Notes: generated by a model not told the origin, from the sequence alone. Shown: positions 3,046 through 32,783, counted from the first letter of the stretch. The stretch: DNA of 64,000 nt from Minwuia sp. (GCF_048263705.1 NZ_JBLXDV010000009.1:14781-78780); one strand, 5' to 3'. Numbers and translations: made by a program.

Positions 3046-3060
3046 TCCGGGACAGCAGCG

Positions 3061-4045: not shown

Positions 4046-4046
4046 C

Positions 4047-4829: not shown

Positions 4830-4850
4830 TCTGAGAAGGGAGAAGTCCAG

Positions 4851-6233
<1,383 letters not shown>

Positions 6234-6252
6234 CCGGAGCTAGATCAAACCG

Positions 6253-8403: not shown

Positions 8404-8408
8404 TCTGA

Positions 8409-11561: not shown

Positions 11562-13298
11562 CTATTCAGGCAGCAGCGCGAAGGTCCAGAAGGACCCGCC
11601 CGGCTGCACCGAGGTCAGCTTGGCGACGGTCTCGGGTGACCCGACACCCTCGACACCGCCCAGCAGGGGCACATAGTTGCGATAGGCTCCGCCGATACCC
11701 GACGCGATGGTCACGTACTGCGTGCCGTCGATCGTGTAGGTCACCGGCTGGCCGATGATCCCCGAGCCGGTCTGGAACTGCCAGACCATCTCACCGGTAT
11801 TGGCATCGAACGCCTGGAACTCACCGGTCTGGGTACCCGCGAAGACCAGATCACCACCGGTAACCATGGTGCCGCCCCAGTTGGCGATCTCCAGCGGATG
11901 TTCCCACTTCGCCTCGCCCGTCATCGGGTCCAGCGCCCGCAGGTAGGCGTGCGGCTCATCCTGCTTCATGTGGAACAGCGCCTTCGACAGGTCGATACCG
12001 ACATAGAAGGTACCCTTGACGAGCTTCGGCTCGATGGCCTTGTAGCCCATGCCGATTTCCAGCGTGTTCGTGTAGACCAGACCGGTTTTCGGGCTGTAGG
12101 ACGCCGGGAACCAGTTCTTGCCCCCGAACGCGCCTGGCCAGACGACGATTTCCTCGCCGGCCCGCATCTTCTTGGTCAGTTCGGAATCGATCGGACGGCC
12201 GGTCTTCATGTCGATGCCGTCGGCCCAGTTCAGGTGCTTCACATACTGGTTGGCCGCCAGCAGCTCGCCGTTGGTGCGGTCCAGCACATACAGGAAGCCG
12301 TTGCGGGCAACATGGATCATGACCTTCCGGTTCTTGCCGTCGATGGTCATGTCGGTCAGGATGTTTTCGCCGACCTCGTCATAGTCGTACGGGTCGTTCG
12401 GCGAATACTGATAGTGCCAGACGATCTCGCCGGTCTCGGGGCGCATCGCCAGGGTCGAGGCGATGTAGAGATTGTCGCCCTTGCGGAATTCGGCGTTCCA
12501 GGGACCGCCGTTGCCGGTGCCCCAGTAGACCAGGTTCAGGTCCGGATCGTAGGAACCCGTGATCCAGGTCGGGCCGCCACCGTGTTTCCAGGTATCGCCC
12601 GGCCAGGTTTCGTGGCCCGGTTCGCCCGGTCCCGCGACCGTGAAGCGGCGCCAAAGATGCTTGCCGGTCTTCAGGTCCCAGCCGTCAATGTAGCCGCGAA
12701 TGCCGTATTCGCCGCCCGAAATACCGGTGATCACCGCCGACGGCGTGACCAGGGGCGCCAGGGTCATGGACTGGCCTTCCTCGATGGAGGCGGCCTGCGA
12801 ACGCCAGACCTCGGACCCGTCCTCGGTCTTCAGCGCGACGACGAATCCGTCCAGCGTCACGCGATAGAGCAGGCCGTCGAGAATGGCCGCCCCGCGATTG
12901 ACGATGCCGCAGCAGACGATGCGCGGGGTCTCCGGCGGATATTCGAACTTCTGCACCCAGATGTTGCGGCCCGTGCGCACGTCGATCGCGTGGGTCGCAT
13001 CGTGTGTCGTCACATACATCCGGCCTTCGTGGATGATCGGCTGCGATTCCTGACCGCGGTTGTCACCCAGACTGTAGTTCCACACCGGCACCAGTCGTTT
13101 GACATTCTTGGCATTGATCTGGTCCAGCGGGCTGTAACGCTTCTGGTCCCAGCCCATGCCCAGTGTCAGAACGTTGTCGGGCGTATTCGCATCGTTCTTG
13201 AGGTCGTCGATGGACTGCGCCCCTGCCCCGAACGGCAGAGTTGCAAGTACAGCGACGCCCAGCAGGCGCTTCAACATTGAATAATCCTCCCTTATCAC
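11562..13298 (-). CDS. xoxF: PQQ-dependent methanol/alcohol dehydrogenase, XoxF (lanthanide) type
   Basis: 578 aa. Signal peptide (true start possibly M8 at 13277). Eight-bladed propeller W motifs, vicinal disulfide CCGIVNRG, and a DYD motif (NDPYDYDE) matching what I recall of the extra Ln-coordinating Asp in XoxF/ExaF enzymes (MxaF has DYA). Confidence 0.85.
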   Translation of the reverse strand: MIREDYSMLKRLLGVAVLATLPFGAGAQSIDDLKNDANTPDNVLTLGMGWDQKRYSPLDQINAKNVKRLVPVWNYSLGDNRGQESQPIIHEGRMYVTTHDATHAIDVRTGRNIWVQKFEYPPETPRIVCCGIVNRGAAILDGLLYRVTLDGFVVALKTEDGSEVWRSQAASIEEGQSMTLAPLVTPSAVITGISGGEYGIRGYIDGWDLKTGKHLWRRFTVAGPGEPGHETWPGDTWKHGGGPTWITGSYDPDLNLVYWGTGNGGPWNAEFRKGDNLYIASTLAMRPETGEIVWHYQYSPNDPYDYDEVGENILTDMTIDGKNRKVMIHVARNGFLYVLDRTNGELLAANQYVKHLNWADGIDMKTGRPIDSELTKKMRAGEEIVVWPGAFGGKNWFPASYSPKTGLVYTNTLEIGMGYKAIEPKLVKGTFYVGIDLSKALFHMKQDEPHAYLRALDPMTGEAKWEHPLEIANWGGTMVTGGDLVFAGTQTGEFQAFDANTGEMVWQFQTGSGIIGQPVTYTIDGTQYVTIASGIGGAYRNYVPLLGGVEGVGSPETVAKLTSVQPGGSFWTFALLPE

Positions 13299-13383
13299 AA
13301 CGGTTTCGTGACCATTGCCTTGTTTATCGCTTTCGAGTTTCCCCTACTGCAGCCTGCTTGGCAAGAATATGAATGCGTGTTTA

Positions 13384-14202
13384 ATGTTCATCCGAGAGAT
13401 GTTTGCCCGTTTGCTGATCATATTCATGGCCGGATGGCTGTCCGTCGTGCCCGCCTCGGCCCAGCCTTCGGGCGCGGCGGAATCGAACGCCGTACCGGAT
13501 GCGGCGGCTGCGTCCGTCCCCATCGATCTGGAGCTGCTGATCGCAATGGATGTGTCCCACAGCGTCACGTTCACCGAACATCAGTCGCAGATCGAGGGCG
13601 TCGCCCGCGCGTTCGAGCATCCCAGGCTGATCAACGCGATCAGAAACCTGCCCGGCGGCAGCGCAGCGGTTGCATTGATGCTGTGGGCAGGCCCTGAAAA
13701 CCAGCTGCTGGCTGTCCCCTGGATGGCCATCAGCGATGACGCAAGCGCCTTCCGCTTCGCCGCCGCCCTGCGCAGACAGACCGAGCCGCCGTGGAAGGGC
13801 CTGAGCTTCACCGCCATCGGGGACGCGCTGCTTCAGGGTGCGGATGCGCTGTCGTCGAACCGGTTCCGGGGGACCCGGCGGGTGATCGATCTGTCCGGCG
13901 ACGATCCGTCGAACCAGGGCGTGGATGTCGCCGAAGCCCGCGATCTGGTCGTGCTGCAGGGCATCGTCATCAACGGCCTGCCAATCCTGCAGGACCGTAG
14001 CGAGCACGAGGACCGGGAGAAGCTGGTGCGCTACTTCGAGAAGGAGGTGGTCGGCGGGCACGGCCATTTCGTCATCCCGACTGTCGATTTTCACGACTTT
14101 CCCCGCGCCATGCTCGCCAAGCTGATCACCGAGGTCTCGGGCACGGAACCGGACCGCACGGATCAGTTCGCATGGCAGCATCCGTCCGGACCGGACCGGT
14201 AA
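13384..14202 (+). CDS. DUF1194 (vWA-like) domain protein, secreted
   Basis: Signal peptide, then IDLELLIAMDVSHSV ... RRVIDLSGDDPSNQGVDVAEARDLVVLQGIVINGLPIL, matching the DUF1194 pattern from memory. Start uncertain: ATGs at 13315, 13369, 13384 and 13399. Confidence 0.6.
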   Translation: MFIREMFARLLIIFMAGWLSVVPASAQPSGAAESNAVPDAAAASVPIDLELLIAMDVSHSVTFTEHQSQIEGVARAFEHPRLINAIRNLPGGSAAVALMLWAGPENQLLAVPWMAISDDASAFRFAAALRRQTEPPWKGLSFTAIGDALLQGADALSSNRFRGTRRVIDLSGDDPSNQGVDVAEARDLVVLQGIVINGLPILQDRSEHEDREKLVRYFEKEVVGGHGHFVIPTVDFHDFPRAMLAKLITEVSGTEPDRTDQFAWQHPSGPDR

Positions 14203-14482
14203 CCGCCAGAACCGTCACCTTCCCGACCGTTACCTCCGCCTTCGTGCAGGAGGCCTGTCTCAGCATGTCGCGGACGTGTCATCCGCAGGCTCGTCCGCCG
14301 CCCCCGGTGCTTGCCAGAGTCAATCGCGAACCTGGAAGACCTGACGCAGTCCGGCTCTCTACAGAACCGCCGCCGCCCGAACCGTCACCCCCGCCTCCGT
14401 GCGGGGGCCATTCTGAATATCCCACGGGCGCGGCGGCAACAGGTACATCAAACCACCTCCGGACAGACCTGGGATTTCAGCT

Positions 14483-15466
14483 TCAATAGGCTGCCGGAGC
14501 GGGCTGGCTCCGCAGGCGGTCGGTCGCGCGTACCAGTTCGTCGATGATGCCCGGTTCGCTGCCCGCATGTCCGGCGTCCGGCACCACGCGGAAGTCGGCT
14601 TCGGGCCACGCCTTGTGCAGGGCCCAGGCGGTCATCATCGGCGTGACGACGTCATAGCGTCCCTGCACGATGACACCGGGGATGTGGCGGATTTTCCCGA
14701 CGTTGGCGATCAGCCAGTCATCGGTCTCGAAGAAGCCGCCGTTGACGAAGTAGTGGCATTCGATCCGGGCGAAGGCCAGGGCGAACTCGGCGTCGGAGAA
14801 ATCGGCCACGCGGCCCGGATCCGACAGCAGTGACAGCGTGCTGCCCTCCCAGGTGCTCCAGGCCCGTGCCGCTTCCAGGCGCACGGCTTCGTCCCCGGAC
14901 GTCAGGCGCTGATAGTAGGCCGAGATCATGTCACCGCGTTCCTCTTCGGGGATCACGTCGACATAGCGTTCCCACTGGTCCGGAAACAGCGCGTCCGCGC
15001 CCTTCTGGTAGAACCAGAGCAGTTCCTCGCGGCGCAGGGTGAAGATCCCCCGCATGATCAGGGCCGACACCCTGTCGGGATGGCTCTCCGCATAGGCCAG
15101 TCCCAGGGCGCTGCCCCAGGATCCGCCGAACACGTGCCAGGTCCTGATGCCGAGGTGATCGCGCAGTTTTTCGATGTCGGCGACCAGATCCCAGGTCGTG
15201 TTCCCGTCGAGTTCCGCATGCGGTGTGCTGAGACCGCAGCCCCGCTGGTCGAACAGGATCACGCGATAGGTGGAGGGGTCGAAGAACCGCCGGTCATCCG
15301 GCTTCTTGCCGCCCCCCGGACCGCCGTGAATGACGACCACGGGCAGTCCCTTCGGATTGCCGCATTGTTCGTAGTGCAGCGTATGGACGTCCGATACCTG
15401 AAGCCGTCCCTGGTCGTAGGGCTCAAGACGCGGATAGAGCGACCGGCGCTTGTTCATCTGGTTCAT
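14483..15466 (-). CDS. pip: proline iminopeptidase (prolyl aminopeptidase, S33 family)
   Basis: Start MNQMNKRRSLYPRLEPYDQG is typical of Pip. HGGPGGG oxyanion motif and GGSWGS nucleophile elbow. The ORF extends upstream to 15655, but the conserved N-terminus begins at M64. Confidence 0.85.
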   Translation of the reverse strand: MNQMNKRRSLYPRLEPYDQGRLQVSDVHTLHYEQCGNPKGLPVVVIHGGPGGGKKPDDRRFFDPSTYRVILFDQRGCGLSTPHAELDGNTTWDLVADIEKLRDHLGIRTWHVFGGSWGSALGLAYAESHPDRVSALIMRGIFTLRREELLWFYQKGADALFPDQWERYVDVIPEEERGDMISAYYQRLTSGDEAVRLEAARAWSTWEGSTLSLLSDPGRVADFSDAEFALAFARIECHYFVNGGFFETDDWLIANVGKIRHIPGVIVQGRYDVVTPMMTAWALHKAWPEADFRVVPDAGHAGSEPGIIDELVRATDRLRSQPAPAAY

Positions 15467-15595
15467 TCTGGCTCGCGTTCCATCCGTTGCATCAAGTGTG
15501 GCGATCGTCACCGGAACCGCCGTAGCACAAACTTCCCGGCGGGCAAATTCAATTGCAGACTGTGGCCTGCTACTTGCCAGTTGAGCGGCAATCGA

Positions 15596-15934
15596 ATGCT
15601 TCGAATGGTGAGAACCGGTTTGAACCGCGAAACTGAGAAAAGAAAGCGCGCTCATATTGTGACTGCAGTCGCAATCTGTGGTGCGTTGTGTGTCGCGGTC
15701 CTCTCACTGTCGTCGGCGAGTGCCGTCTTCAGCCCGTTCCGGGATCAGGTGACACCGCAGCAGACCGCGTTGCAGCTCGCCCGGCATGAGTGCGAAACCA
15801 GCCTGAGCCATTCGATCGTCAAGCGCACGCATGCCAGTCCCGATCATGCCCGCGCGCTGGCCGAGCAACGCTGCGACATGCTGTTCGACGGTGCCGCCAT
15901 ACCACCCCGATCCCTGCCGACCGAAGATACCTGA
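15596..15934 (+). CDS. hypothetical small secreted protein (candidate)
   Basis: ATG at 15596 gives MLRMVRTGLNRETEKRKRAHIVTAVAICGALCVAVLSLSSASA|VF, a textbook Sec signal peptide, then about 70 aa with 2 Cys. Lies in the pip/hlyD intergenic region. No homology recognised. Confidence 0.35.
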   Translation: MLRMVRTGLNRETEKRKRAHIVTAVAICGALCVAVLSLSSASAVFSPFRDQVTPQQTALQLARHECETSLSHSIVKRTHASPDHARALAEQRCDMLFDGAAIPPRSLPTEDT

Positions 15935-15976: not shown

Positions 15977-17266
15977 TTATCTCTCGCGAAAGGCCTCCTG
16001 CCGCAATCTCAGAACGGGACGCAGCAGAAAGCTGGCGACGGAGCGTGACCCGGTCTGAATATCCACGGTTGCCTGCATGCCGGCGCTGATCGGCAGGTCG
16101 CCCGGCCGGTCGCCCAGATAGGACCGGTCCGTCTCGATCACCACCTTGAAATAGGATGAACCGGTCTCGTCGATCGAGGCGTCGGGCGCGATCCGCACAA
16201 CGGTCCCGTCCAGACCGCCGAACCGGACGAAGTCATAGGTACTGATCTTCACGGTGGCGGACTGCCCCTCGGCAACGAACCCCCGGTCGGCGGGACGCAG
16301 CCTGGCATCGACCACCAGATGACCGTCCACGGGCACGATCTCCAGAATGGGCTGACCGGGCGCCACCACACCGCCCAGGGTGCGGAATTTCATGTCACCC
16401 ACGATGCCGTCGATGGGGCTGCGGATCAGGGTCCGGCTCTGCTGGTCGTCGGCGCTGGTGAGTTTCTCGGTGATCGAGCCCAGTTCGACCTCGACGCTCG
16501 CAAGTTCGTCCTGCGCTTCGCGGCGATAGGCCCGCTCGGCCTCCTGCTTGCGCTCGGTGGCTTCGCGCCGGCTCTCGTTGGCGCGTCCGATCGCGGCGTT
16601 CAGGCTTTCGATCTCGCCGCGCAACCGGGCCAGTTCGGACTGTTTCTGATTGATCTCCAGCTTCGAGACCAGTTCGTCCCTTGCCAGGTCGCGCAGGGTC
16701 GCCAGCGCCTCCTCGGCGAAGGCCAGTTCGCGCCGCCGCGCGTCGCGGGCAGCGGCGAACTCTCGGGCTTCCTGCGTGCTCTGGCGCTCCTGCGCGCTCA
16801 GCACGGCGATGATGCTCTGGAACTCCGACTTGCGCGCATCGAAGGCGCGCTGCTCGGCCTGAACCACACCGGGCCGACGGGCGGCGACCTCTGGCGGAAA
16901 TCGCGGGAAGGTACCGCCGGCTTCGGCTTCCAGGCGGGCCTTCTTCAGCAGCAGACCGTCCTCGCGCACGCGCAGCTCCTGCGGATTGCTGGCCGTGACA
17001 CCCAGCGCGAGCCGCAGCAGCGGCTGTCCGGTTTCCACCCGGTCGCCCTCCCGGACCAGCAGTTCCTCGACAATGCCGCCTTCCAGGTGCTGCACGGTCT
17101 TCACATCGCCCTGCGGTACGACGGTGCCGCTGGCGACGGCGACCTCGTCCAGTTCGGCAACCAGCGCCCAGATCAGCAGCAACAGGATCAGCCCGACGAT
17201 TGCGCGCGCAAGCCACAGGATTGTGCGCGGGCGGTGACGGCGGGTCAGATCGTCCAGCGCACTCAT
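15977..17266 (-). CDS. type I secretion periplasmic adaptor, HlyD family
   Basis: About 430 aa starting MSALDDLTRRHRP. Single N-terminal TM, long coiled-coil, C-terminal beta domain. Overlaps the upstream ABC gene by 4 nt. Confidence 0.85.
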   Translation of the reverse strand: MSALDDLTRRHRPRTILWLARAIVGLILLLLIWALVAELDEVAVASGTVVPQGDVKTVQHLEGGIVEELLVREGDRVETGQPLLRLALGVTASNPQELRVREDGLLLKKARLEAEAGGTFPRFPPEVAARRPGVVQAEQRAFDARKSEFQSIIAVLSAQERQSTQEAREFAAARDARRRELAFAEEALATLRDLARDELVSKLEINQKQSELARLRGEIESLNAAIGRANESRREATERKQEAERAYRREAQDELASVEVELGSITEKLTSADDQQSRTLIRSPIDGIVGDMKFRTLGGVVAPGQPILEIVPVDGHLVVDARLRPADRGFVAEGQSATVKISTYDFVRFGGLDGTVVRIAPDASIDETGSSYFKVVIETDRSYLGDRPGDLPISAGMQATVDIQTGSRSVASFLLRPVLRLRQEAFRER

Positions 17267-18969
17267 GATCCCGCGTCTCCCTGCTGTCGCGCCGCTTCCA
17301 GCCGGGCGCGGACATCGCGCGCCGGCCCCGCCGCCACAATACGACCCCCATCCAGGGCGATGATGTTCTGGCACGCATCCAGCAGTTCCGGACTGTGGGT
17401 CACCACGACGATGGTTCGCTCATCTCCCAGCGCGGCAAGGTTCCGGGCCAGCGTTCTGGTCGCCGCCGCGTCCAGATTGCCCGACGGTTCGTCCAGCAGA
17501 AGCACGGGCGGATCGCCGATCAGGGCCCGCGCGATCGCCACCCGCTGACGTACGCCGCCGGGCAGGTCCATGCCGCCCTCGCCGATGACACTGCCATAGC
17601 CGTCCGGCAGCGCCGAAATGGCCGAATGCGCACCGGCCAGATGCGCCGCGTCGATGATCAGATCATCCGAGGCGTCCGGCCTGCCGATGGCGATGTTCTC
17701 GCGGATCGTACCGGCGAACAGGAAGGTGTGCTGCGGGACATAACCGACAGCCCGCGCCAGATCGGCCCGCCCGAACTGTGCGATATCCGCCTCGTCCAGC
17801 AGGACCCGCCCGGAGGCCGGACGATACAGCCCCTGCATCAGCTTCAGCAGCGTGGTCTTGCCCGATCCGTTGGGCCCCACCAGCGCGTGCAGTCCGGCAC
17901 CGATCTTCAGTCGCGCATCCTTCACGGCGGGCGGGCGTTCCGCGGCGTAGGTGAAAGTCACATTGTCCAGCCACAGCACACCGTCACGTACATCGACGCT
18001 GATGGCGCCCCTGTCCGGCTCCTCGGCAGTCGCGAAACAGTCCGTCAGACGCCGCAGCGACTGCCGGGTCGCCATGTAGGTCCGCCAGTTGCCGATCAGC
18101 TGCTGAAACGGCTGCACGATGCGCCCGCCCAGCATGTTGGCCGCGACCAGCGCACCGATGGAAAGCTCCTGGTTCAGGATCGCCACGGCACCCACGGTCG
18201 TCAGCGCAACGGTGGTCATGATCGTCAGCGCCAGTCCCAGGTGCACGAAGGTGTCCGACTGGGTACCGCGCCGTACGGATTCCTCGACCGATCGGGCATG
18301 CCGCTCTTCCCACAGGTCCGACATCGGCTCCCGCAGCGCCAGTGCCTTGACCGTCGCCCGGCCCCCGATCAGCTCGGCGGTGATGGTGTCGCGGTCGTAG
18401 CTGGCGCGCCGCTCGTCGGCGTTCGCCCCCTGCATGACCCGTCCCGAATACCAGGCCAGCGCGATGAACAACGGGAACACGGCAAGCAGCACCCAGCCCA
18501 CCGGTGCCGCGATGATGAAGATGGCCACGGCGAAGAAAAGCGCAAACGGCAGGTCGGCAATCAGCACGGCCGACAGGCCGGAGAAGGCGTTGCGCACCGT
18601 GTCCGCGTCCCGGAACAGGGCCTGCCAGTAGGCAGCCGGACGGCGCTCCAGCACGGGCAGGGGCGACGCCGTGATGCGGCTGTAAAGCGCGCGCGCCAGA
18701 TTGACGTCGATCTCGACGGCGGCGGACCGCAACAGCTTGGCCCGGCCCTGCCGCAGCAGGAAGTCGAAGGCGACGGCGATGATCATGCCGATCACCAGCC
18801 CCTGCAGCGTCGACAGGCCGCCGTGAAAGACGACGCGGTCATAGACCTGCAGGACGAAGATCGGCACCGCGATGGCGAGCAGGTTGACGATGAAGGAGTA
18901 GGCGATGACCTCGCCGATGCGCCGCCTCACGGGGCGCAACACCTCCTTCAACCAGTCTTCAGCACGCAT
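17263..18969 (-). CDS. type I secretion ABC transporter ATPase/permease (PrtD/AprD type, no C39 peptidase domain)
   Basis: About 569 aa starting MRAEDWLKEVL. Six-TM domain, then Walker A GPNGSGKTTLL, ABC signature LPGGVRQRVAIARAL, Walker B VLLLDEPS. Confidence 0.85.
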   Translation of the reverse strand: MRAEDWLKEVLRPVRRRIGEVIAYSFIVNLLAIAVPIFVLQVYDRVVFHGGLSTLQGLVIGMIIAVAFDFLLRQGRAKLLRSAAVEIDVNLARALYSRITASPLPVLERRPAAYWQALFRDADTVRNAFSGLSAVLIADLPFALFFAVAIFIIAAPVGWVLLAVFPLFIALAWYSGRVMQGANADERRASYDRDTITAELIGGRATVKALALREPMSDLWEERHARSVEESVRRGTQSDTFVHLGLALTIMTTVALTTVGAVAILNQELSIGALVAANMLGGRIVQPFQQLIGNWRTYMATRQSLRRLTDCFATAEEPDRGAISVDVRDGVLWLDNVTFTYAAERPPAVKDARLKIGAGLHALVGPNGSGKTTLLKLMQGLYRPASGRVLLDEADIAQFGRADLARAVGYVPQHTFLFAGTIRENIAIGRPDASDDLIIDAAHLAGAHSAISALPDGYGSVIGEGGMDLPGGVRQRVAIARALIGDPPVLLLDEPSGNLDAAATRTLARNLAALGDERTIVVVTHSPELLDACQNIIALDGGRIVAAGPARDVRARLEAARQQGDAGS

Positions 18970-19114
18970 TTGGCCGGCATCCTTGTGACGATAACAGACC
19001 CTTCGGTCTTGCAACTTGAACCACGCTGTCAGAGCATAACGCCCGCGCGCCGGGCAATAGATCGGATAAACGACGATGACGAAAGCCGATTCGTCGGTTA
19101 AAGCTTGGGTTCTT

Positions 19115-20422
19115 ATGGTGTGGAAAGGGCAATTGTTGCGACGCGGCCGGATCATCGCAGTGATGCTGACGATGGGCTGGGGCATGCCCGCGACGGCGGC
19201 CCCCCTGTCCGAGGAACTGAGCGGCCTTCTTCAGGGACACCCTGACGTGCGCGCGGCGGAACGGCGTCTGGATCAGGCCACGGCGGGCGTGACCGAGGCC
19301 CGCGCGCCCTACCTTCCCCAGCTTCGGATCAGTGGCGAGATCGGCTACGAGAATGTCGACAGTCCCGTGCGCCGCGCAACCGGCGGCGATGCTGTCGAAC
19401 AGGTGCGCGAGGTCGGCCGCTTCACCGTCACCCAGAAACTGTTTGACGGGCTGCGCACCGACGGCCAGCTGAAGACCGCCATCGCGCGTGAGTTCAAGGC
19501 GGGATACGGGGTCGAACGTGCGAACCAGCAGATCCTGCTGCGTGGCACGGCGGCCTACATCAATGTCCTGAAACAGACCGAACTGGTGGACATCGCGCTG
19601 GAGACCGAGGCCACGATCCGCAGGCAGCTGACGCTGGAGGACGAGCGCGTGAAACGCGGCTCTGGCCTGTCCGTCGATGTCCTGCAGTCGAAATCGCGTC
19701 TGCAGGCCGCCAAGGAAACGCGGGTCAGGATCGAAGGTCAGTTGCGCGAAGCCATCGCCGAGTATTACGCGGTCTTCAATCACGCACCGGATATCGGGTC
19801 CATGGGCCCGCCCGCCGCGCCCGACGATCTGATCCCCGCCGAACTTCAGACCGCGATCAACCGGGCGCTGAGCGAAAACCCGTTGATCAAGCAGAGCCAG
19901 GAAACCATCGGCGAGGCGAAGCAGCAGCGCAAGGTGGCGATGGCGGACTTCTTCCCGCAGATCGACGTCGTCGCCGAAGGCGCCGTCGAGAATGATTTCG
20001 AGGGCATTCCGGGCAGCCGCAAGGATGTGTTCCTGGGGGTCCGCGCGAACTGGGAGATCTTCGACGGACTGGGGACGGTCGCCGCGACCGAGCGAACGGG
20101 CCATCGCATCGCCGAAACCATGGAAAACCACGCCGCGCTGAGCCTGGAACTGGCCAAGCGTGTCGAGGTGGCCTGGCAGAACCTGGTGACCCTGAGAGAG
20201 CGGCAGACGCTGGCCGAGAACGCCGCGAACATTTCGGTCGAACTGTTCAACGCGCGGCGCAAGCTGCGCACGGCGGGCCGCGAGTCGGTGGTCAACCTGC
20301 TGAACGCCGAGGCGGAACTGAACGCCGCCCGGTCGCGCGCCGTGGCCGCGCATTACGATGCGCTGACCCAGAGCTTCCGGCTGCTGTTCGAGATCGGCGA
20401 TCTGACGCTGGCCGCCTACTGA
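19115..20422 (+). CDS. TolC-family outer membrane efflux protein for T1SS
   Basis: Signal peptide, then two repeated OEP helical/barrel halves. Divergent from the T1SS ABC/HlyD genes. ORF begins at 19076; start chosen at the signal-peptide Met. Confidence 0.75.
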   Translation: MVWKGQLLRRGRIIAVMLTMGWGMPATAAPLSEELSGLLQGHPDVRAAERRLDQATAGVTEARAPYLPQLRISGEIGYENVDSPVRRATGGDAVEQVREVGRFTVTQKLFDGLRTDGQLKTAIAREFKAGYGVERANQQILLRGTAAYINVLKQTELVDIALETEATIRRQLTLEDERVKRGSGLSVDVLQSKSRLQAAKETRVRIEGQLREAIAEYYAVFNHAPDIGSMGPPAAPDDLIPAELQTAINRALSENPLIKQSQETIGEAKQQRKVAMADFFPQIDVVAEGAVENDFEGIPGSRKDVFLGVRANWEIFDGLGTVAATERTGHRIAETMENHAALSLELAKRVEVAWQNLVTLRERQTLAENAANISVELFNARRKLRTAGRESVVNLLNAEAELNAARSRAVAAHYDALTQSFRLLFEIGDLTLAAY

Positions 20423-23400: not shown

Positions 23401-24831
23401 CGCAGCAGTGGCGTTCGTATAATCGACCGTATCCGTATCGGCACCGCCGTCCAGCCGGTCGTTGCCGTCGCCGCTGGCGATCAGGTCATCCCCCGATCCT
23501 GCCGATATGTCCATGCTGCGCCCGATCGCCGAGGCCTCGACGGTATCATTGCCCGCGCCCAGGTCGAGCCTGACCGTGTTCTGGGAAATGTCGGTGTTGG
23601 ACAGGTCCCCGATCGTGACCGTGTCACCGCCCGATCCCAGATTGATCGCGATCGTCTCAACCTCATCGACGATGATATTGGAATCCGTCGGCGCGTCGAA
23701 GTCGAGTACCGCCCGTCCCGCGTCATCGCTGACGAACAGAACCGCCGTTTCATTGACCGGATCAGACTGGATGGTGAGCGTGTCATCGCCCGCGCCGCCC
23801 GTGATCTGAAAATCCCCGTCGGCGATACTGATGGTCAGCGCGCCGTCGAACTGTTCGAAGGTCACATTGTTGTTGCCGTCATCGCCACCGTCATCAAGGA
23901 CCAGTTCCTCATCGTCGTTGTCGCGGACGTCAAAGACATCGTCCCCGTCATCGCTGAGGACATCGTCCGATCCTTCCTCGCCGTCCAGCAGACCCTGCGT
24001 GTCGATCAGCAGGGGCTCGGCCTGCGCCTCGCCGATCCCGAACAGTTCGCTGAGGCGGCCAAAGACGCCCAGATCGTCGGTATCGGCCAGTTCAGCAATG
24101 GCACCGACGTCCGAATAGGCCAGCACACCGTCGCCGAATTCCGACGTCAGGGTGGCGGCATTGACATCGGTCAGCAGGCTGGGATCGCGGAACAGCGACA
24201 CCACCTGCAGGCCCTGCAGGGGCTGGTCGATGATCACCGGCGCGCCTGAACTGGCGACCGCGATGGATCCCGCAAGAGCGCCGGCAATACCGGGCAGCAG
24301 GACGAAGGTATTGGCCTGTGCCTCGGGCGCGGCCTTGCCGATCATGCGCGCGTCCCTGACGGTGACCGATGCCACCGGTGTCCGCACCAGCAATTCGCTG
24401 CCCGGTGCATCGGGACCGCCGGTGCTGTCGACGGAAAACTCGCCCTGGACGACGAAGAACTGTGGCTTGCCGGCCAGGGTCGCCGGTTCCTCGATCAGGA
24501 CCCGGCTTTCGCTGTCGAAAAAGATCGTCGTGCCGTCTGCCGTGGCCAGTTCAAGCGCGCCGTCACCGCGCGTCAGGATCACATCGCCCGGCCCCATTTT
24601 CTGGCCCGGCACTACGGGACCCTGCGTCCCGTCCACCGATATCACCACGACCTCGCCGGAGACGTTGCGGACCGTCACCTGATCGTTCTGGCCCTGCGCG
24701 ACCTGCGCATTCACGACGGTCTCATGCTGCTCGAACACTGCTGCGCCCGAGACCGCTTCGTCCGCACCTTCGGCAGTGCCGGAAAGGGGGCCGGTTCGGC
24801 TCTCACTGGATGATGCTGCAAGCTGGTCCAT
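20428..24831 (-). CDS. large RTX calcium-binding repeat protein (T1SS substrate, adhesin/hemolysin-like)
   Basis: 1467 aa from M9 (the ORF starts at 24855; M9 at 24831 has a good SD AAGGAAG). Dozens of GGxGxDxUx nonapeptides organised in about 55-60-aa higher-order modules (TADFS..VxVDL..G.ATG.G.DTL..IE..IGS..DD.L.G...N.L.GG.G.D). Acidic, Cys-free, no signal peptide. C-terminal 150 aa non-repetitive, consistent with a T1SS signal. Confidence 0.85.
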   Translation of the reverse strand: MDQLAASSSESRTGPLSGTAEGADEAVSGAAVFEQHETVVNAQVAQGQNDQVTVRNVSGEVVVISVDGTQGPVVPGQKMGPGDVILTRGDGALELATADGTTIFFDSESRVLIEEPATLAGKPQFFVVQGEFSVDSTGGPDAPGSELLVRTPVASVTVRDARMIGKAAPEAQANTFVLLPGIAGALAGSIAVASSGAPVIIDQPLQGLQVVSLFRDPSLLTDVNAATLTSEFGDGVLAYSDVGAIAELADTDDLGVFGRLSELFGIGEAQAEPLLIDTQGLLDGEEGSDDVLSDDGDDVFDVRDNDDEELVLDDGGDDGNNNVTFEQFDGALTISIADGDFQITGGAGDDTLTIQSDPVNETAVLFVSDDAGRAVLDFDAPTDSNIIVDEVETIAINLGSGGDTVTIGDLSNTDISQNTVRLDLGAGNDTVEASAIGRSMDISAGSGDDLIASGDGNDRLDGGADTDTVDYTNATAAVDVDLSATSATGFGNDTLTNFENVIGSAFDDTLAGDAGDNRLDGGGGADTADFSGAAAAVNADLFADTATGDGTDTLTAIENLIGSAGDDTLTGDGAANVIAGGLGNDSMDGAAGIDTADYSGSATAVSVDLDTGLATGEGNDTLIGFENATGSAQDDVLAGNASANVLTGNAGDDTLAGAGGADVLAGGDGTDTADFSALVATVTVDLDAGSFSDGTDTGTLSSIENVIGSGANDSITGDANANDLRGSNGADTLAGAGGDDTLQGEVGNDRLSGGAGDDLLDGGAGDDTADFGATTGGVTVDLATGEATGEGTDTLVSIERVEGGSGADSISGDANANTLSGAAGDDTLNGLGGDDRFGYSTGENGNDLIFGGDGAGDNLRLDLLDPSGSNVTISDDGNGDVLVDMIAPLNQSALLDGVEIVSVIGADGDDVLIIDDLSGTEIGNGGIVASLGGGADSLNAADATTAVSVDGGAGNDTLVSGAGADTLAGGDGTDLLDFGNFGGAVTVDLAGGTANSAATGTDQISGFEDVRGGAGADSLTGDAQNNGILGGAGADTISGGAGNDTLLGDAGNDVIDGGAGDDSLLGDAGNDTVSFASAANAVSVDLAEGNATGDGNDTLIGFEAVIGSANDDTLVGSDNDDTLDGGAGNDDIDGGAGTDTASYATSAVAVTASLETGIANSAEGSDFLRNIDNLIGTSRGDSLTGNGEANVLDGGAGGDRLTGGAGDDTLLGNTGGDTLVGGLGDDFFDGGVGTDTADFSASVVAVNVDLTGAQGIASGEGNDTLVAIERILGSNANDTISGAEAAENLQGRSGDDSILGNGGNDTLIGAAGADTLDGGAGDDSLSGGNDNDLLQGGIGNDTLDGESGSDVLTGGDGNDAFFYDTAENHQDVITDFLSGTDRFLIDQTAFGNIAANGSNNLIDGQSFFAVGVSLADGAIDLGNAEASFVFDSDDNLHFDPDGGTTENSFQIATVTDGNLSATDFEVQ

Positions 24832-24920
24832 CGAAACTTCCTTCGCTCGGGGCACTTCATGTGAACGCGTGCCCTGTCATTCAGATGGGAACAGGCATTC
24901 ACAAACGCAAATAGCGGGAC

Positions 24921-24935
24921 GCAAATGGCAGGCCA
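24921..24935 (-). promoter_or_regulatory. candidate sigma-54 (-24/-12) promoter for the RTX gene
   Basis: Minus-strand sequence TGGCCTG-CCAT-TTGCG matches TGGCACG-N4-TTGCW with correct GG/GC spacing. Lies about 90 nt upstream of the RTX ATG at 24831. Confidence 0.45.
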
Positions 24936-24961
24936 TGCCCGTCCTGCGAGCGGGTGCGCGA

Positions 24962-27900
24962 TCAGGCCGCCTGCTCGCCCGCTATAACCCTTAGCCGAGC
25001 CAGTGTCCGGCCCGCAACCGAATGCAGGTCAACAATCGCATCACGTGCATCCTCAAGTTGACCGGAGTCACAGAATGTTTCCACCCGGGCCGCTGTCTCA
25101 GAAAGTGACACCGCGCCGATGGTCCCGGCACTGCTCTTCAGACTGTGGGCGTCGCGTCCCAGATCGCCTGCATTGGCTGCCGTCAGGGGTTCAGACAGCC
25201 GCGCCAGCAGATCAGTCGTATCGTCGATGAAATCCCTGAGCAGGACCGGCAGGTAATCCGCGCCGACGTCTTCGCCGAACTGGTCCATGACGGCCTGATC
25301 GATCAGACCGCCAGTCTGCCCATCGGCTGTCGGTCCATCGCGGCTGACCGGATCCCCGCTCGCTTCTTTCACCGCAACCGGATTCACATCGGCGGGCGGG
25401 CCACCGGTCGCCTTCGCACCGACAAGGGCCCAGCGCGCGACCAGTTGCAGAAGCTCGACCTTGTCGAACGGCTTGGCGATGAAATCGTCCATGCCCTTCG
25501 CGAGGCATTCGTCACGATGTTCGGGCATGGCATTCGCGGTAACGGCCACGATGGGAATCGCCGCTTTCCGGCCGCCCATGGCGCGAATCTTCGCCGTCAC
25601 CTCGAAACCATCCATGTCCGGCATCTGCACATCCATCAGGATGATCTCGAAATCGCCATCCCTGACCGCCGCCACAGCGCTTGCACCGTCTTCCGCCGCA
25701 CTGACCAGATATCCGGCCTTTTCCAGCATGACGCGCGCAACCTGCAGGTTGATCCGGTTGTCGTCCGTGACCAGAACGCGCATGCCGCGCGCCGCCCCAT
25801 CGCCGATCTGTTCCAGGGTCTGGCGCGCCGCCGATTCGACATCGCCGTCCCGGCCCGTCAGCGCCTGGGCCAGCGGCATGCTGCGCACCGGCCGCATGAC
25901 AAATCCATCGAAACCGCGCGCGACCAGATCGTCCGCACGACCGCGCTGCGACGGATCGATCGCCACGATCATCCGGCCATCGACCGACTGACGCAGGGTC
26001 GCGATGTTGGTGGCGCTCGCCGCCTCCGCCATGGTGCCGTCAATCAGCAGGTGATCGATCCGCGCGCCCGGCGGCGTCAGCGTCGGGGAGATATGTCCGA
26101 CCCGGAGCCCGAGCCCGCGCAGGCGCGCCGCCAGCCCTTCGCGCAGGACAGCGTTTTCGGCAAGCACGCCGACCTGCCGACCGTCCAGCATGCCCAGCAG
26201 GCGCTGACGCCCGTCGCTGATCTCGGCGTCCGCCGGCTCAAGCGCGATCTCGAACCAGAACGTGCTGCCCTCGCCTTCGACGCTCTCCAGACCGATCCGG
26301 CCATCCATCAGCCCGATGAGGCGCTTGCAGATGGCCAGCCCCAGCCCGGTGCCGCCGTATTTCCGCGCCGTCGAGGCATCGACCTGGGTGAACTCCTGAA
26401 ACAGGGCACTCTGCCTGTCTTCGGGGATGCCGATCCCCGTGTCGGTGACGTTGAAGCGCAGGACCGGGCGGTCATCGCGGCTGCCGGTCAGCGCGATGTC
26501 GAGCGTGACGCCGCCTTCGTCCGTGAACTTGATCGCGTTACCCGCAAAGTTCAGCAGCACCTGACGGATGCGGGTCGGATCGCCCAGAAAACGGCGGGGC
26601 AGCGCAGGATCGATGATGACCGCGATCTCGACGCCGCGTTCGAACGCCCGCGCGGACAGCAGGTCGGCCACACCGTCGGCGACGTCTTCCAGGTCGAAGG
26701 CCACCGATTCCAGTTCCAGGCGGCCTGCTTCCAGCTTCGAGAAGTCCAGGATGTCATTGATGATGGTCAGCAGCGCCTCGCCGGACTTGCGCACGGTTTC
26801 GGCATACTGGTGCTGCTCGCCGCTCAGCGGTGTTTCCAGCAGCAGGTTGGTCATGCCCAGCACGCCGTTCATCGGTGTGCGGATTTCGTGACTCATCATG
26901 GCCAGGAAGCGGGACTTGGCGACGTTGGCGTCTTCCGCGCGCTCCTTGGCCTCGACCAGCGCGACCTCGTTTTCCTTCTGCGAGGTGATGTCGGTATGGA
27001 CGCTGACGCGGCCGCCCTCGTCGGTGCGGAACTCCCCCACCAGAATCCACCGGCCGTCCGTCATGGCCAGTTCGAACGGCCCGCTGGGATTGCGATGCCG
27101 CTCCAGCCTGTCGGCCACCCAGACCTCGGGATTCGTCTGCGCGCTGACGACGTGGCGCGACGCGGTGCGGCGGAGAACATCCTCGAACTTCTGCCCCTCC
27201 TCGATGCGGCCGGTGGCGCCGCCCGCATAGATATCGGCATATTTCGCGTTGAACAGGATCAGCCGGTCGTCTGAATCATACAGCGCGAACCCGTCGTTCA
27301 TCGCTTCGATGGCTTCCAGCAACTGGGTTCTGGCAGCCGTTGCCCCGGCTTCGGCGATCGCCACCTGCCTGTAGAGCCGGCGCGTCCGCCGGATCTCCCG
27401 GATCAGCAGCACCACCAGCAGCCCGCCCGCCAGCATCGTCGCGATCGAGGACATGAGCAGATTGAAATAGATGGGCCGCAGCCGTTCGGCCCGGAACCGC
27501 GTCACCAGCGACTGCGACGAATCCGTCAGTTCCCTGACGTCATTGAAAACGGGCAGCAACGCGCTGCGGATGCCGCTGTAGGTCCTGAAATCATTCGGCT
27601 GCAGCGCGCGCAGCCGTTCATCATTGGCGTTCAGCGTCGCGGCGAGCCGCAGCGCCAGTTCTCCGGCCCCCAGCGCGTCCTCGTCGTCAGAGCGCATCTT
27701 GTTCAGAAAGATCGGCAGCCGCTGCTTGAGGTAATCGTAGCGCTGCACGAACTCGCGCTGCGTCATCGCCGACGTGCCTGTCACATAAGTGTCCAGCGCT
27801 GAGAGGAACAGCGACAGTTCGTTCTTCGTGTGCGACGCGGCCCAGACCACCGTGTCGTATTCGCCCGAACTGGCGTTATATTCATCCCTGAGCGTCAGAA

Positions 27901-28045
27901 CGGAGTAGACGGTGGTCGACAGCAGCACCAGGATCGCAATCCCCAGCACCGCCAGCCGCCGCTTCGCGCTGCGCCCCATATCAGCAATGCTCAGCCGGGA
28001 AGCGCTGCCCGTTCCGCGTTCTTCGGGTTGAACCTGCATTGTCAT
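24962..28045 (-). CDS. hybrid sensor histidine kinase with periplasmic sensor, PAS, HisKA, HATPase, pseudo-receiver, receiver and C-terminal Hpt domain
   Basis: 1027 aa. TM1 at about residues 30-52 and TM2 at about 195-215, flanking an approximately 140-aa periplasmic region. H-box [12 protein letters not shown]-boxes, REC with [12 protein letters not shown], Hpt with [14 protein letters not shown]. Confidence 0.85.
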
Positions 28046-28162
28046 CGTGATTCTATCATGCGAGAAAGATCATCCGGTGTCGAATTTGTAGACGATAGCC
28101 AGCCCGGAATCAGGCCCTGCAGACCAGCCTGCACATTCACAACCAACGGGACAATGTCATAG

Positions 28163-29623
28163 ATGAGCGGCAGAACGCGCCCTTACATTTTACTGGTTGA
28201 GGATACACCGACCCTCGCACGCAGTTACATCCAGTTTCTGCGCGATGAGCCCTATGAAATCCATCACGTCGAACTGGGCAAGGACGCGCTGCGCTCGTTC
28301 GAGGATCGCCGTCCCGATGCCATTCTGCTGGATCTGCGCCTGCCGGACATGGACGGCATGGACATTCTCCAGCATGTCAGCGAACAGGACGAAGGCGTTC
28401 CGGTCATCGTGATCACCGCGCACGGATCGGTGCAGACGGCGGTCACCGCCATGCGTCTGGGCGCCGCCGATTTCATCGTCAAGCCGTTCTCGGCAGACCG
28501 GCTGAAGGTGACGCTGAAGAATGTGCTTGAGACCAACAAGCTGCGCGAGATCGTCGATACCTACCGCACCGAGATCGACCGCGGCGGCTTCGAGGGCTTC
28601 ATCGGCAGTTCCCTGCCGATGCAGGCGGTCTATCGCATCATCGAGGCGGCAGCATCGTCGAAAGCCACGGTCTTCGTGACCGGCGAGAGCGGAACGGGCA
28701 AGGAGGTCTGCGCGGAAGCGATCAAGAACCGCAGCCCGCGCCGCAAGGGGCCCCTGGTTGCCATCAATTGCGCGGCCATCCCGCACGACCTGATGGAAAG
28801 CGAGATCTTCGGCCACGTGAAGGGGGCCTTCACAGGTGCCCTGGGTGAGCGCGAGGGTGCGGCCCACATGGCCAATGGCGGCACCCTGTTTCTGGACGAA
28901 GTCTGCGAGATGGACCTGGATCTGCAGGCCAAGCTGCTGCGCTTCATCCAGACCGAGACCTTCCGCAAGGTCGGCGGATCAGTGACCGAGAAGGTGGATG
29001 TAAGACTTGTCTGCGCGACCAATCGCGATCCCATGGAAGAGGTGAAGGCCGGGCGGTTCCGCGAAGACCTCTATTACCGTCTGCACGTCATTCCGTTGCA
29101 CCTGCCGCCACTGCGCGACCGCGATGACGACATCCTGAAGATCGCCGACATGTTCCTGCGCAGCTATGCCGAGCGTGAAGGTCGGAAGTTCAGACAGTTC
29201 GAACCGGCCGCCGCCGCCGTGCTGATGTCCTACGACTGGCCGGGCAATGTTCGTGAGCTGCAGAACATCATCCAGAACATCGTCGTTTTGAACGATGGAG
29301 AGACGGTGACGGCGGACATGCTGCCAGGTCCGCTGGCGCAAATCGACCGCTCCGCGATTCCGGCGGCGATGGCGGCGGTTCCGGACACGCAGGCATCATC
29401 CGAGGCGGATGCCCGCGTCCATGGCAAGCCGACGGTTCAGGCCCTTTCCGACGATATCCGGCCCCTTGCCACAGTCGAGCGCGAGTATATCGAACATGCG
29501 ATCAACCGCTGCGACGGGAACGTCCGCACGGCGGCTGCGCTGCTGGGCATCGCCCCGCAGACGATCTATCGCAAGCGCACCGCCTGGGAAGAGGAAGACC
29601 TGGCGTCCAGCGCCGCCGAATAG
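28163..29623 (+). CDS. sigma-54-dependent response regulator, LuxO/NtrC-like (REC + AAA+ sigma-54 + Fis HTH)
   Basis: 486 aa. Receiver with [11 protein letters not shown]. Sigma-54 interaction domain ([29 protein letters not shown]). C-terminal HTH ([20 protein letters not shown]). Divergent from the hybrid HK. Confidence 0.85.
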
Positions 29624-31594: not shown

Positions 31595-32416
31595 CTAGGA
31601 TTTCGCAAGCGGAAGCGCGATCGCGGCTTCGTCGCCGATCGCACGAAAGGACAATGTCTCCTCAAGATACAACTTTACGTGCCGGGCGTCATGGCTCGAA
31701 TAACCGATGGCAAAGTCGCGTCCGACGTATAGCTCGAAATCGCCGCCGCGACGGGACAGGATCAGCCCGCCCTCGACGGCACGGCTGGGCACGACGGGCC
31801 CGTCGAGCAGATGGCGCGCATGATCCAGCACGCGCCGCCCCGTGTCGGAGACCGCTGCCTGCAGGCGGATGTAGAGGTCCACGGGCAGAACCATGGCGAA
31901 AGGCCCCTGCACGCCCTCAAGGCGCAGCTTTTCCAGCGCTTCGGCGATCGATTCCGGCAGTTTTGCGGGATCGTCGGGCAGATCGCCGGCAGATGAGGCA
32001 ACACTGGTCATGACGCCGTGGATGCCCGCCGCCTCGTAGCCTTGAAAGACCAGGCGATCCTCGGCCAGCGCGATCGTGCGCGCGGCGGCCACCACCGGAT
32101 CGAGGTCCGCGTCTTCCGCGCCGCGGTCGAGATTTTCCAGTTCGTCGATCTCGATTTCGAACGGCACGCGCAGTTCGACCATCGGCAGAACCACGCGCTG
32201 GCGCGCGGAAACATCGTCGGCCAGAGGCTCATCGATCTGCCGCACACGTCCGGTGGCGACAGCGTCGTGGTGATAGCCGAGCGGTCCCTTGAAATCGACC
32301 ACCTGGCGGGCGGCCAGAACGGTCTTCAGGGTCGTGGCGGCGGCCTCTTCGATTTCCGTCCAGGCATTCTTCGAGACGGGTGCCAGCCCGCGTTTCAGGT
32401 CGTCCATGATTTTCAC
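31595..32416 (-). CDS. enc: family 1 encapsulin nanocompartment shell protein (linocin M18-like)
   Basis: 273 aa. N-terminus MKIMDDLKRGLAPVSKNAWTEIEEAAATTLKTVLAARQVVDFKGPLGYHHDAVATGRV follows the HK97-fold family-1 encapsulin pattern as I recall it (no alignment run). A cargo gene lies immediately upstream. Confidence 0.75.
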   Translation of the reverse strand: MKIMDDLKRGLAPVSKNAWTEIEEAAATTLKTVLAARQVVDFKGPLGYHHDAVATGRVRQIDEPLADDVSARQRVVLPMVELRVPFEIEIDELENLDRGAEDADLDPVVAAARTIALAEDRLVFQGYEAAGIHGVMTSVASSAGDLPDDPAKLPESIAEALEKLRLEGVQGPFAMVLPVDLYIRLQAAVSDTGRRVLDHARHLLDGPVVPSRAVEGGLILSRRGGDFELYVGRDFAIGYSSHDARHVKLYLEETLSFRAIGDEAAIALPLAKS

Positions 32417-32417
32417 C

Positions 32418-32783
32418 TCAATCCTTCAGGTCGCGGATGCCGAGATCGCCCTGGTTGCGTCGGGGAGTCGCCCGCAGGACGTCATCGTCGTCACCGTGCT
32501 CGCCGGTGATCGGTCCGTCCTTGAACAGGATGCTCTTCATCTGTTCGTCCAGCCGGGGCATGCGCCGCCGCAGCCATTCCAGCGTCATCACCGCGTGTTC
32601 GATCTCTTCATCCCGATTGTGACCCAGTATGGCCTTCAGGTCGGCGTCGCCGGTGGCGTCGGCGCGCTGCTGGTACCAGTCAACCGCCTCGAATTCCTCC
32701 ATCAGGGAGACGATGGCCCTGTGCAGGTCCAGCGTTTCCTCGGACAGGCGTTCGATCGGCTCATGTAGCCCTTCACTGGCCAT
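32418..32783 (-). CDS. encapsulated ferritin-like protein (EncFtn) cargo with C-terminal targeting peptide
   Basis: 121 aa. ExxH ferroxidase-type motifs (EEFEAVDWYQQRAD, DEEIEHAVMTLEW). C-terminal GDLGIRDLKD resembles the family-1 encapsulin targeting peptide (GSLGIGSLKG-like). Stop sits 1 nt before the encapsulin start. Confidence 0.7.
   Translation of the reverse strand: MASEGLHEPIERLSEETLDLHRAIVSLMEEFEAVDWYQQRADATGDADLKAILGHNRDEEIEHAVMTLEWLRRRMPRLDEQMKSILFKDGPITGEHGDDDDVLRATPRRNQGDLGIRDLKD

Follow-up and report, generated by a model that had tools for sequence, protein, structure and literature searches.

Evidence for a conserved module linking a hybrid sensor kinase and a LuxO-family regulator to a predicted sigma-54 promoter of an RTX gene in Minwuia sp.

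INTRODUCTION

A 64-kb stretch of DNA from Minwuia sp., a marine alphaproteobacterium, encodes a giant repeats-in-toxin (RTX) protein, a membrane hybrid sensor kinase, and a LuxO-family sigma-54 enhancer-binding response regulator. The whole of this stretch is referred to here as the window, and genes and motif counts were read within its 64 kb. The RTX gene begins 130 nt downstream of the kinase gene on the same minus strand, and the regulator gene is divergent from the kinase gene (Table 1). This arrangement raises the question of whether the kinase and the regulator control the RTX gene and, if so, at which promoter. An initial annotation had proposed a signal-controlled, sigma-54-dependent switch for the RTX protein and its type I secretion system (T1SS), with an additional control element in the RTX leader. 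Comparison with related loci upheld the promoter and the three-gene module but not the leader switch or the joint control of the T1SS. With somewhat better than even confidence, we favor a reading in which the hybrid kinase would act through the LuxO-family activator on a sigma-54 promoter of the RTX gene.

RESULTS

A sigma-54 promoter upstream of the RTX gene

The sequence TGGCCTGCCATTTGC is found at positions 24935-24921 of the minus strand, 26 nt past the kinase stop codon and 89 nt ahead of the RTX ATG (24831), and its GG and GC doublets are spaced 10 bp apart, in keeping with the TGGCAC-N5-TTGCW consensus. The core pattern TGGC-N7-TTGC is not enriched in the window (6 matches versus 3.0 expected), with the remaining five of the six matches all intragenic and TGGCCTGCCATTTGC the only intergenic one. 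Since the motif by itself is not significant in the window, the promoter call rests on comparison. Twelve Minwuia-clade loci were used for this, namely, the window, L001-L003, L005, and L081-L087, together with a distant 13th locus, L089. Of these, L003 belongs to Minwuia thermotolerans.

In the 12 Minwuia-clade loci the motif is positioned 25 to 28 nt after the kinase stop codon. It precedes the RTX ATG by 68 to 74 nt in the other loci of the clade and by 89 nt in the window, the longer leader being due to a window-specific insertion of about 15 nt (24906-24920, minus strand) that immediately follows the -12 element and duplicates TTTGCG. These 12 loci provide eight distinct promoter sequences, or nine from 13 loci when L089 is included. 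Across the nine, all eight bases of TGGC and TTGC are invariant and two or three neighboring positions are conserved; the 7-nt spacer and the flanks have diverged and are unalignable. The background rate of the motif is 3.7e-5 per position, giving a chance match of about 0.004 per such intergenic region. Multiplied across the five lineages that diverge most, this comes to approximately 5e-12, which can be read only as an estimate in the style of an upper bound, given the shared ancestry of the lineages. In L089, a perfect TGGCACGAATCTTGC (TGGCAC-N5-TTGC; full consensus, TGGCACGAATCTTGCT) is present 135 nt upstream of the RTX gene, with an AT-rich stretch resembling an integration host factor (IHF) site before it. 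Together, these comparisons make a solid case that the RTX gene has its own conserved, predicted sigma-54 promoter. The coordinates that the initial annotation had given for the genes, the domains, and the -24/-12 element were confirmed, and the related loci all had the motif unchanged and in the same place.

L089 has another perfect sigma-54 promoter, TGGCACGCTTCTTGC, downstream of the regulator gene and ahead of a gene for a stand-alone receiver; an AT-rich IHF-like stretch is also present there. The two L089 promoter regions are covered by positions 9480-9670 and 7713-7860.

Sigma-54 is evidently in use in Minwuia sp., since FlbD, a second sigma-54 activator, is encoded in the window (4851-6233) and scores 786 bits, over its equivalog cutoff. 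The window thus holds two activators with the GAFTGA motif, the LuxO-family regulator and FlbD; rpoN itself was not seen within these 64 kb.

Conservation of the regulator, kinase, and RTX genes across related loci

The regulator, kinase, and RTX genes occur together in L001-L003, L005, and L081-L087, and the flanking genes and the position of the T1SS differ among these loci. The L089 regulator is 62% identical to that of the window, and here the order is the regulator gene, then divergently the RTX gene, and then the kinase gene. The RTX N-terminal domain (39%) and the kinase sensor (30%) of L089 are nevertheless homologous to their window counterparts, and the promoter sits in the regulator-RTX intergenic region. 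In the window and L001, T1SS genes are placed 3' of the RTX gene, and in L084-L086 they are found beyond the regulator; L082 and L081, respectively, showed just a TolC homologue at these two places. In L002, L003, L005, L083, and L087, T1SS genes were not found in the fetched flanks. These gene orders support a conserved core made up of the regulator, the kinase, and the RTX gene, to which the secretion system does not belong.

The LuxO-family regulator

The Pfam domains of the regulator are Response_reg, Sigma54_activat, AAA_lid, and HTH_8; its GAFTGA motif is intact, as is the acidic pocket, in which D57 is the acceptor residue. It scored 648 bits against the NCBIfam LuxO model (NF041946), under the equivalog cutoff of 800 bits, and 409 bits against NtrC. 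The match to the PDB structure of LuxO (5EP0) reached 486 bits, with the majority of aligned positions identical as judged by eye, and the protein is 100% identical to a Minwuia sp. protein in NCBI. The partner of the kinase had been described as a LuxO-like sigma-54 activator, and this agrees with its domain content and with LuxO being the top family by a wide margin. Of the recognition-helix residues that are reported to be critical in LuxO (PMC11407668), the majority are present: TIYRK is kept, S423 is replaced by Q, and L429 is replaced by R.

Relatives that are about 60% identical number in the thousands and come mainly from metagenomes and metagenome-assembled genomes (MAGs); for several, the annotation is marine Rhodospirillales or another group of Alphaproteobacteria, and among those named are Rhodospirillaceae, Magnetovibrio, and Varunaivibrio. 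In Varunaivibrio sulfuroxidans (L090, 8001-9862) and Magnetovibrio sp. (L091, 8001-9809), LuxO-like regulators of about 60% identity adjoin a stand-alone gene for a histidine phosphotransfer (Hpt) protein of 115 to 119 aa. The context there is conserved (mutY, regulator, Hpt, phosphoribosyltransferase), and an RTX gene was not found nearby. The two genes make up a LuxO-LuxU-like pair in Alphaproteobacteria. Because these regulators adjoin a lone Hpt gene without an RTX gene, the LuxO-like regulator family is not intrinsically tied to RTX genes.

The membrane hybrid sensor kinase

Pfam confirmed the PAS domain, kinase core, receiver, and C-terminal Hpt domain that had been assigned to the 1,027-aa kinase. 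Two hydrophobic segments, transmembrane segments TM1 (residues 31-53) and TM2 (residues 196-217), are followed by PAS_7 (246-360), HisKA (376-441; H386), HATPase (488-603), a receiver (757-869; D805), and Hpt (935-1005; H967). The H386, D805, and H967 motifs are invariant across six orthologues, and the closest orthologues are from Minwuia MAGs and "Kordiimonadales bacterium IMCC3096." This supports the prediction of a complete His-Asp-His relay within a single polypeptide. The best NCBIfam kinase models were BarA (473 bits) and TorS (448 bits), and all scores were far under the equivalog cutoffs.

The top PDB match was ShkA (6QRJ), which aligned with residues 381-873 at 327 bits in one colinear stretch. 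Residues of approximately 620-731 had no Pfam match yet matched the pseudo-receiver REC1 of ShkA (PDB 6QRL; E value, 4e-8), so that the "degenerate receiver" previously noted in this kinase is real. The ShkA residues that contact cyclic di-GMP (c-di-GMP) are R324, Y338, I340, R344, S347, and Q351. Of these, R324 and R344 correspond to R701 and R721, which are invariant in the clade, and Y338 corresponds to an invariant F715. The counterparts of I340 and S347 are variable in the clade, and that of Q351 is Q, E, or R. The DDR tether motif of the REC1-REC2 linker is not present; a conserved (T/L)EQ(I/V)GD is found instead. Nucleotide gating of the kinase through the pseudo-receiver is a possibility.

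For the periplasmic domain (residues 54-195; about 140 residues), neither a Pfam nor a PDB sequence match was found. The predicted structure is a four-helix bundle, and the nearest folds, with weak E values, are the sensor domains of QseE, PcaY, Tar, and NarQ. The sensor had been called novel; the domain models as an ordinary four-helix bundle and is better termed unclassified. The further proposal that the kinase represents LuxN/LuxQ-LuxU logic fused into one chain stood insofar as the His-Asp-His relay is contained in one chain. The core, however, is closest to ShkA and not to LuxQ or LuxN, and the Hpt fusion is the ordinary layout of an unorthodox kinase.

Does the adjacent regulator act at the RTX promoter?

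Several observations weigh against action of the adjacent regulator at this promoter. An activator-binding site was not found near the promoters of the Minwuia loci, and the usual enhancer zone (-80 to -150) falls within the last part of the kinase gene, which encodes Hpt. Conservation at synonymous sites over the last 250 kinase codons showed no excess and follows amino acid identity, and shared palindromes (5-nt arms; -320 to -5) did not exceed their frequency in coding regions used as controls. When the upstream regions were stacked without gaps, nothing conserved emerged. The Vibrio LuxO box (TTGCAN3TGCAA or TTGCAW3TGCAA) was absent near the promoters, and the window held 11 loose matches to the box versus 18.8 expected. 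Moreover, FlbD is encoded 19 kb away, read-through transcription is possible because the 130-nt kinase-RTX gap has no terminator, and the whole of the evidence is comparative. Since no activator-binding site was found, the link from regulator to promoter rests on conserved synteny, which argues strongly that the adjacent LuxO-family regulator acts at the RTX promoter.

In the distant L089 locus, CGTCGCG occurs four times in the 350 nt upstream of the RTX promoter (0.48 expected), with three copies at -126, -98, and -69, and a palindrome, CGCGACACGTCGCG, is found at -133. The second L089 promoter also has upstream CGTCGCG repeats. These repeats and CGCGACACGTCGCG may be candidate activator-binding sites of the L089 lineage; CGTCGCG was rejected as a general binding site, as it is not common to the Minwuia loci.

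We also considered the possibility that the sigma-54 promoter is real but activated by another protein, e.g., FlbD, in which case RTX expression would follow the motility hierarchy and the LuxO-like regulator would have its targets elsewhere in the genome. The missing binding site for the adjacent regulator, the presence of the FlbD gene in the same window, and the Varunaivibrio and Magnetovibrio regulators, next to which a lone Hpt gene but no RTX gene is found, would all be in keeping with this. However, FlbD is unlinked to the RTX gene in other loci, while the regulator, kinase, and RTX genes are co-located in 13 loci despite changing surroundings, and the linkage survives the L089 rearrangement, in which the promoter lies between the regulator and RTX genes. 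Control by FlbD or another such protein is therefore regarded as doubtful, and the adjacent regulator is preferred as the activator.

Transcription from the kinase promoter

A 17-nt block, TTCTCGCATGATAGAAT (28050-28066, minus strand), is common to the window, L001, L081, and L082, in intergenic surroundings that are unalignable. It terminates 5 to 10 nt ahead of the kinase start codon, and a sigma-70-like match is present at 28083-28055 in the regulator-kinase intergenic region. TGGC-N7-TTGC was not found in that region. The block resembles an extended -10 element, and the kinase mRNA may possibly be almost leaderless.

If the motif upstream of the RTX gene were no working promoter, the RTX gene could be transcribed mainly by read-through from this sigma-70-type promoter, as part of a kinase-RTX operon. 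The gap of only 130 nt without a terminator, the conserved extended -10-like block, and the lack of significance of the motif alone in the window are consistent with such an operon. It is made very unlikely by the eight motif bases, which are invariant at a fixed position amid spacers and flanks that cannot be aligned, and by L089, in which the RTX gene precedes the kinase gene yet retains the motif, there in a better consensus form. Read-through from the kinase promoter is possible as a basal input in addition to the predicted sigma-54 promoter.

The RTX leader

If transcription starts about 12 nt past the GC doublet, the predicted 5' untranslated region of the RTX mRNA is about 78 nt. The initial annotation had drawn attention to a nested inverted repeat that could fold over the ribosome-binding site. 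The repeat, TGTGAA...TTCACA, is indeed present at 24903-24860, but it is not above chance, and it ends 16 nt ahead of the Shine-Dalgarno sequence GAAGGAAG and so does not cover the ribosome-binding site. The fold of the window leader was no more stable than those of shuffled sequences (z-score, -0.27). Orthologous leaders gave z-scores of +1.47, +0.74, -0.16, and +0.54, and L003 alone was low at -2.36. Conserved structure did not emerge, as RNAalifold returned zero consensus pairs on seven leaders. Across the orthologous loci the leader sequence is not conserved, whereas its distance to the ATG is. A leader hairpin acting as a ribosome-binding-site switch was thus not supported, being neither conserved nor unusually stable and having no overlap with the ribosome-binding site.

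An Rfam scan of 24600-25200 at E values up to 10 found no family, including Qrr, the only match being a meaningless one to isrG (10.9 bits), and the stretch from the promoter to the RTX ATG contained no terminator. A Qrr-like small RNA (sRNA) from this promoter is predicted to be unlikely because there is neither an Rfam match nor a terminator. Although the known targets of LuxO are sigma-54-dependent sRNA genes and an inverted repeat does occur in the leader, the analogy with Vibrio LuxO-qrr, by which the promoter would drive such an sRNA or a structured leader occluding the ribosome-binding site, is extremely improbable given these negative scans, the ordinary z-scores outside L003, the zero consensus pairs, the unconserved leader of conserved length, and the 16 nt that separate the hairpin from the Shine-Dalgarno sequence.

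The RTX protein and type I secretion

The RTX protein starts with a conserved M-D-Q, and a FecR-like beta domain (residues approximately 53-215; nt 24187-24675) is followed by an acidic linker, RTX repeats with at least 15 HemolysinCabind stretches (Pfam), and a conserved C terminus. The N and C termini are conserved in orthologues, and the C-terminal 200 aa are kept. Within the FecR-like domain, GKAAPE(A) and the NTF(V/T) that comes after it (residues 165-171; window positions 24320-24340) are nearly invariant, with G, AA, and E strictly so, and the distant stand-alone FecR-domain proteins P0001-P0003 are no exception. A search of a large protein collection with the N-terminal domain returned only three distant FecR-domain proteins, and as judged from this search the family of the domain seems to be either rare or not well indexed.

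A model of residues 51-244, built from a four-sequence alignment, was all-beta with a pLDDT of 77. Its best Foldseek matches were FecR/PupR-type anti-sigma signaling domains. A weaker match (E value, 1.4e-3) was to 5IX9, with a template-modeling score of 0.73 on the target but 0.30 on the query over 61 columns; 5IX9 is the N-terminal anchor domain of MpIBP and has served as the template for modeling the retention module of LapA. The FecR-like N-terminal domain hints that the RTX protein is an adhesin associated with the cell surface and not a toxin that is released freely. Against retention of the LapA kind, the LapG site (T/A/P)AA(G/V) was not found in RTX residues 1-300, where the only invariant Ala-Ala is that in GKAAPE, and a LapG or LapD gene was not found among the neighbors scanned; the truncation of the ABC transporter relative to the LssB model also speaks against it.

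With its tandem GGxGxD nonapeptide repeats and nearby ABC, HlyD, and outer membrane protein genes, the RTX protein qualifies as a T1SS type of substrate. Compared with the LssB model, the ATP-binding cassette (ABC) transporter is missing the N-terminal ~110 aa; its true start is probably near 18990, and the orthologues are 571 to 576 aa. Because the RTX and ABC genes have the plus-strand TolC gene between them, the RTX gene is monocistronic and runs toward the TolC gene, and a further unit, apart from both, comprises the ABC and HlyD genes. The earlier suggestion that the RTX promoter also controls a dedicated T1SS was not supported: the TolC gene is encoded on the opposite strand, the ABC and membrane fusion protein (MFP) genes are a separate unit, and the position of the T1SS varies by genome. 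Genes for a pyrroloquinoline quinone (PQQ)-dependent alcohol dehydrogenase, DUF1194, and an alpha/beta-hydrolase occur with the T1SS genes in the window (11562-15655), in L084 (15471-19019), and also in L085-L086. The T1SS therefore travels with this block and not with the RTX gene. A minus-strand open reading frame (ORF) at 18959-20353 (464 aa; Arg/Gly/Leu-rich translation) was rejected as an antisense shadow of the TolC gene, its apparent conservation in tblastn being due to the real TolC gene on the opposite strand.

Other features of the window

The features of the locus are listed in Table 1. In a megablast search of a plasmid collection, the locus gave only short matches to conserved domains. 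A flagellar cluster at 284-10162 includes fliF, fliG, fliN, a motA/pomA-like gene, flbD, flhA, an flhF-like gene, and a MinD/FlhG-like gene. On the minus strand at 31595-32783, an encapsulin shell gene (Linocin_M18) lies immediately 3' of an EncFtn-like cargo gene, constituting a ferritin-type nanocompartment operon.

Table 1. Positions of the regulator, kinase, RTX, and type I secretion features in the window
Feature	Position	Strand	Basis or remarks
LuxO-family sigma-54 enhancer-binding response regulator, 486 aa	28163..29623	+	Pfam, NCBIfam LuxO, PDB 5EP0
Divergent regulator-kinase intergenic region	28046..28162		Conserved block TTCTCGCATGATAGAAT; without TGGC-N7-TTGC
Membrane hybrid sensor kinase, 1027 aa	24962..28045	-	Pfam, PDB ShkA matches, invariant H/D/H motifs
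Predicted sigma-54 (-24/-12) promoter TGGCCTGCCATTTGC of the RTX gene	24921..24935	-	Sole intergenic match in window; conserved in related loci
RTX leader	24832..24920	-	Inverted repeat 24860-24903; Shine-Dalgarno GAAGGAAG 24837-24844; ~15-nt insertion
RTX protein gene, 1467 aa	20428..24831	-	Pfam HemolysinCabind 1.8e-72, FecR 3e-7
TolC-family outer membrane protein gene	19076..20422	+	Pfam OEP 6.7e-43; convergent with RTX gene
T1SS ABC transporter, best match LssB type	17263..19185	-	NCBIfam TIGR03375, 485 bits, profile positions 111-694
HlyD-family T1SS membrane fusion protein	15977..17374	-	TIGR01843, 390 bits; cutoff of 208 exceeded

DISCUSSION

In the scheme that we favor, the membrane hybrid kinase would sense a periplasmic cue via the four-helix bundle and possibly cytoplasmic cues via the PAS domain and the pseudo-receiver. 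It would then autophosphorylate at H386, with the phosphoryl group moving internally to D805 and on to H967 of the fused Hpt domain, which would donate it to D57 of the divergently encoded LuxO-family regulator. The activated regulator would remodel sigma-54 RNA polymerase at the TGGC-N7-TTGC motif 26 nt downstream of the kinase gene, and a monocistronic mRNA for the 1,467-aa RTX protein would be switched on. The RTX protein would be exported by the separately transcribed ABC/MFP/TolC type I system. The domain content, the catalytic residues, the promoter motif with its conservation, the conserved synteny, and the separate T1SS units are observed, whereas the phosphotransfer partners, the action of this regulator at this promoter, the transcription start, and the adhesin role are inferred.

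A more elaborate version would make the kinase a two-input gate in which the pseudo-receiver binds c-di-GMP or another nucleotide and frees the receiver, and the periplasmic bundle monitors the FecR-like domain of the RTX protein in the secretion pore. Even the rearranged L089 locus has both the kinase sensor and the N-terminal domain of the RTX protein, which fits this proposal without demonstrating it, and we hold the gate to be improbable. If it were true, adhesin transcription would be set directly by the second-messenger level and by the occupancy of the protein's own secretion system, via a LuxO-family activator.

The favored scheme, in which kinase and regulator act on the RTX promoter, would provide a concrete regulon assignment for an uncharacterized LuxO-family regulator outside the vibrios, with an RTX/adhesin gene rather than a Qrr sRNA as the predicted target. 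LuxO-like activators of about 60% identity are common in metagenomes and MAGs, some beside a lone Hpt gene and some beside a fused kinase-Hpt gene and an RTX gene. The locus is thus useful for tracing the rewiring of quorum-sensing-type phosphorelays and for annotating Minwuia genomes.

The system resembles the Vibrio LuxN/LuxQ/CqsS-LuxU-LuxO-qrr relay in that the regulator is of the LuxO family and the logic runs from a hybrid kinase through an Hpt step to a sigma-54 activator. It differs in having the Hpt domain fused to the kinase rather than in a separate LuxU and in a kinase core that is not LuxQ/LuxN-like. The Minwuia regulator scores under the 800-bit cutoff, the TTGCAN3TGCAA box and a Qrr RNA are lacking, the likely direct target is the protein-coding RTX gene, and the host is an alphaproteobacterium.

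In Caulobacter, ShkA-ShpA-TacA is a c-di-GMP-gated hybrid kinase system feeding a sigma-54 activator (PMC6969517, PMC7010744), and ShkA is activated when c-di-GMP displaces the DDR linker motif from REC1 (PMC6969517). The Minwuia kinase shares with ShkA the order of dimerization and histidine phosphotransfer domain, catalytic ATP-binding domain, REC1 (pseudo-receiver), and REC2, and its output is likewise predicted to reach a sigma-54 activator via an Hpt step. ShkA is cytosolic, whereas the Minwuia kinase adds two transmembrane segments, a periplasmic four-helix bundle, PAS, and a fused Hpt domain; its linker has (T/L)EQ(I/V)GD in place of DDR, and S347 and I340 are not conserved. The targets of ShkA are cell cycle and stalk genes, as opposed to the RTX gene predicted here. 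The unorthodox kinases BarA/GacS, TorS, ArcB, and EvgS also carry HisKA, HATPase, receiver, and Hpt domains in a single polypeptide. The Minwuia kinase has an extra pseudo-receiver and scores far under their equivalog cutoffs, and it is paired with a sigma-54 activator, not with a regulator of the FixJ/NarL or OmpR type.

Surface-retained RTX adhesins of the LapA/MpIBP type are controlled by c-di-GMP and FleQ (bioRxiv 10.1101/198937; PMC5550230; PMC5026340). The Minwuia locus is similar in encoding a giant RTX protein with a T1SS, in an N-terminal beta domain that partly superposes on 5IX9, and in an ABC transporter whose best model is of the LssB type; it is dissimilar in the lack of a LapG site and of the N-terminal ~110 aa of that model. 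The Pseudomonas putida lapA promoter (PlapA) is regulated by FleQ, a sigma-54-family protein, yet is sigma-54 independent (PMC5026340), unlike the promoter predicted for the Minwuia RTX gene. A sigma-54 promoter on an RTX adhesin gene would for this reason be a modest novelty. All of the components otherwise belong to known kinds, and the closest analogues of the system are ShkA-ShpA-TacA, LuxQ-LuxU-LuxO, and the unorthodox hybrid kinases.

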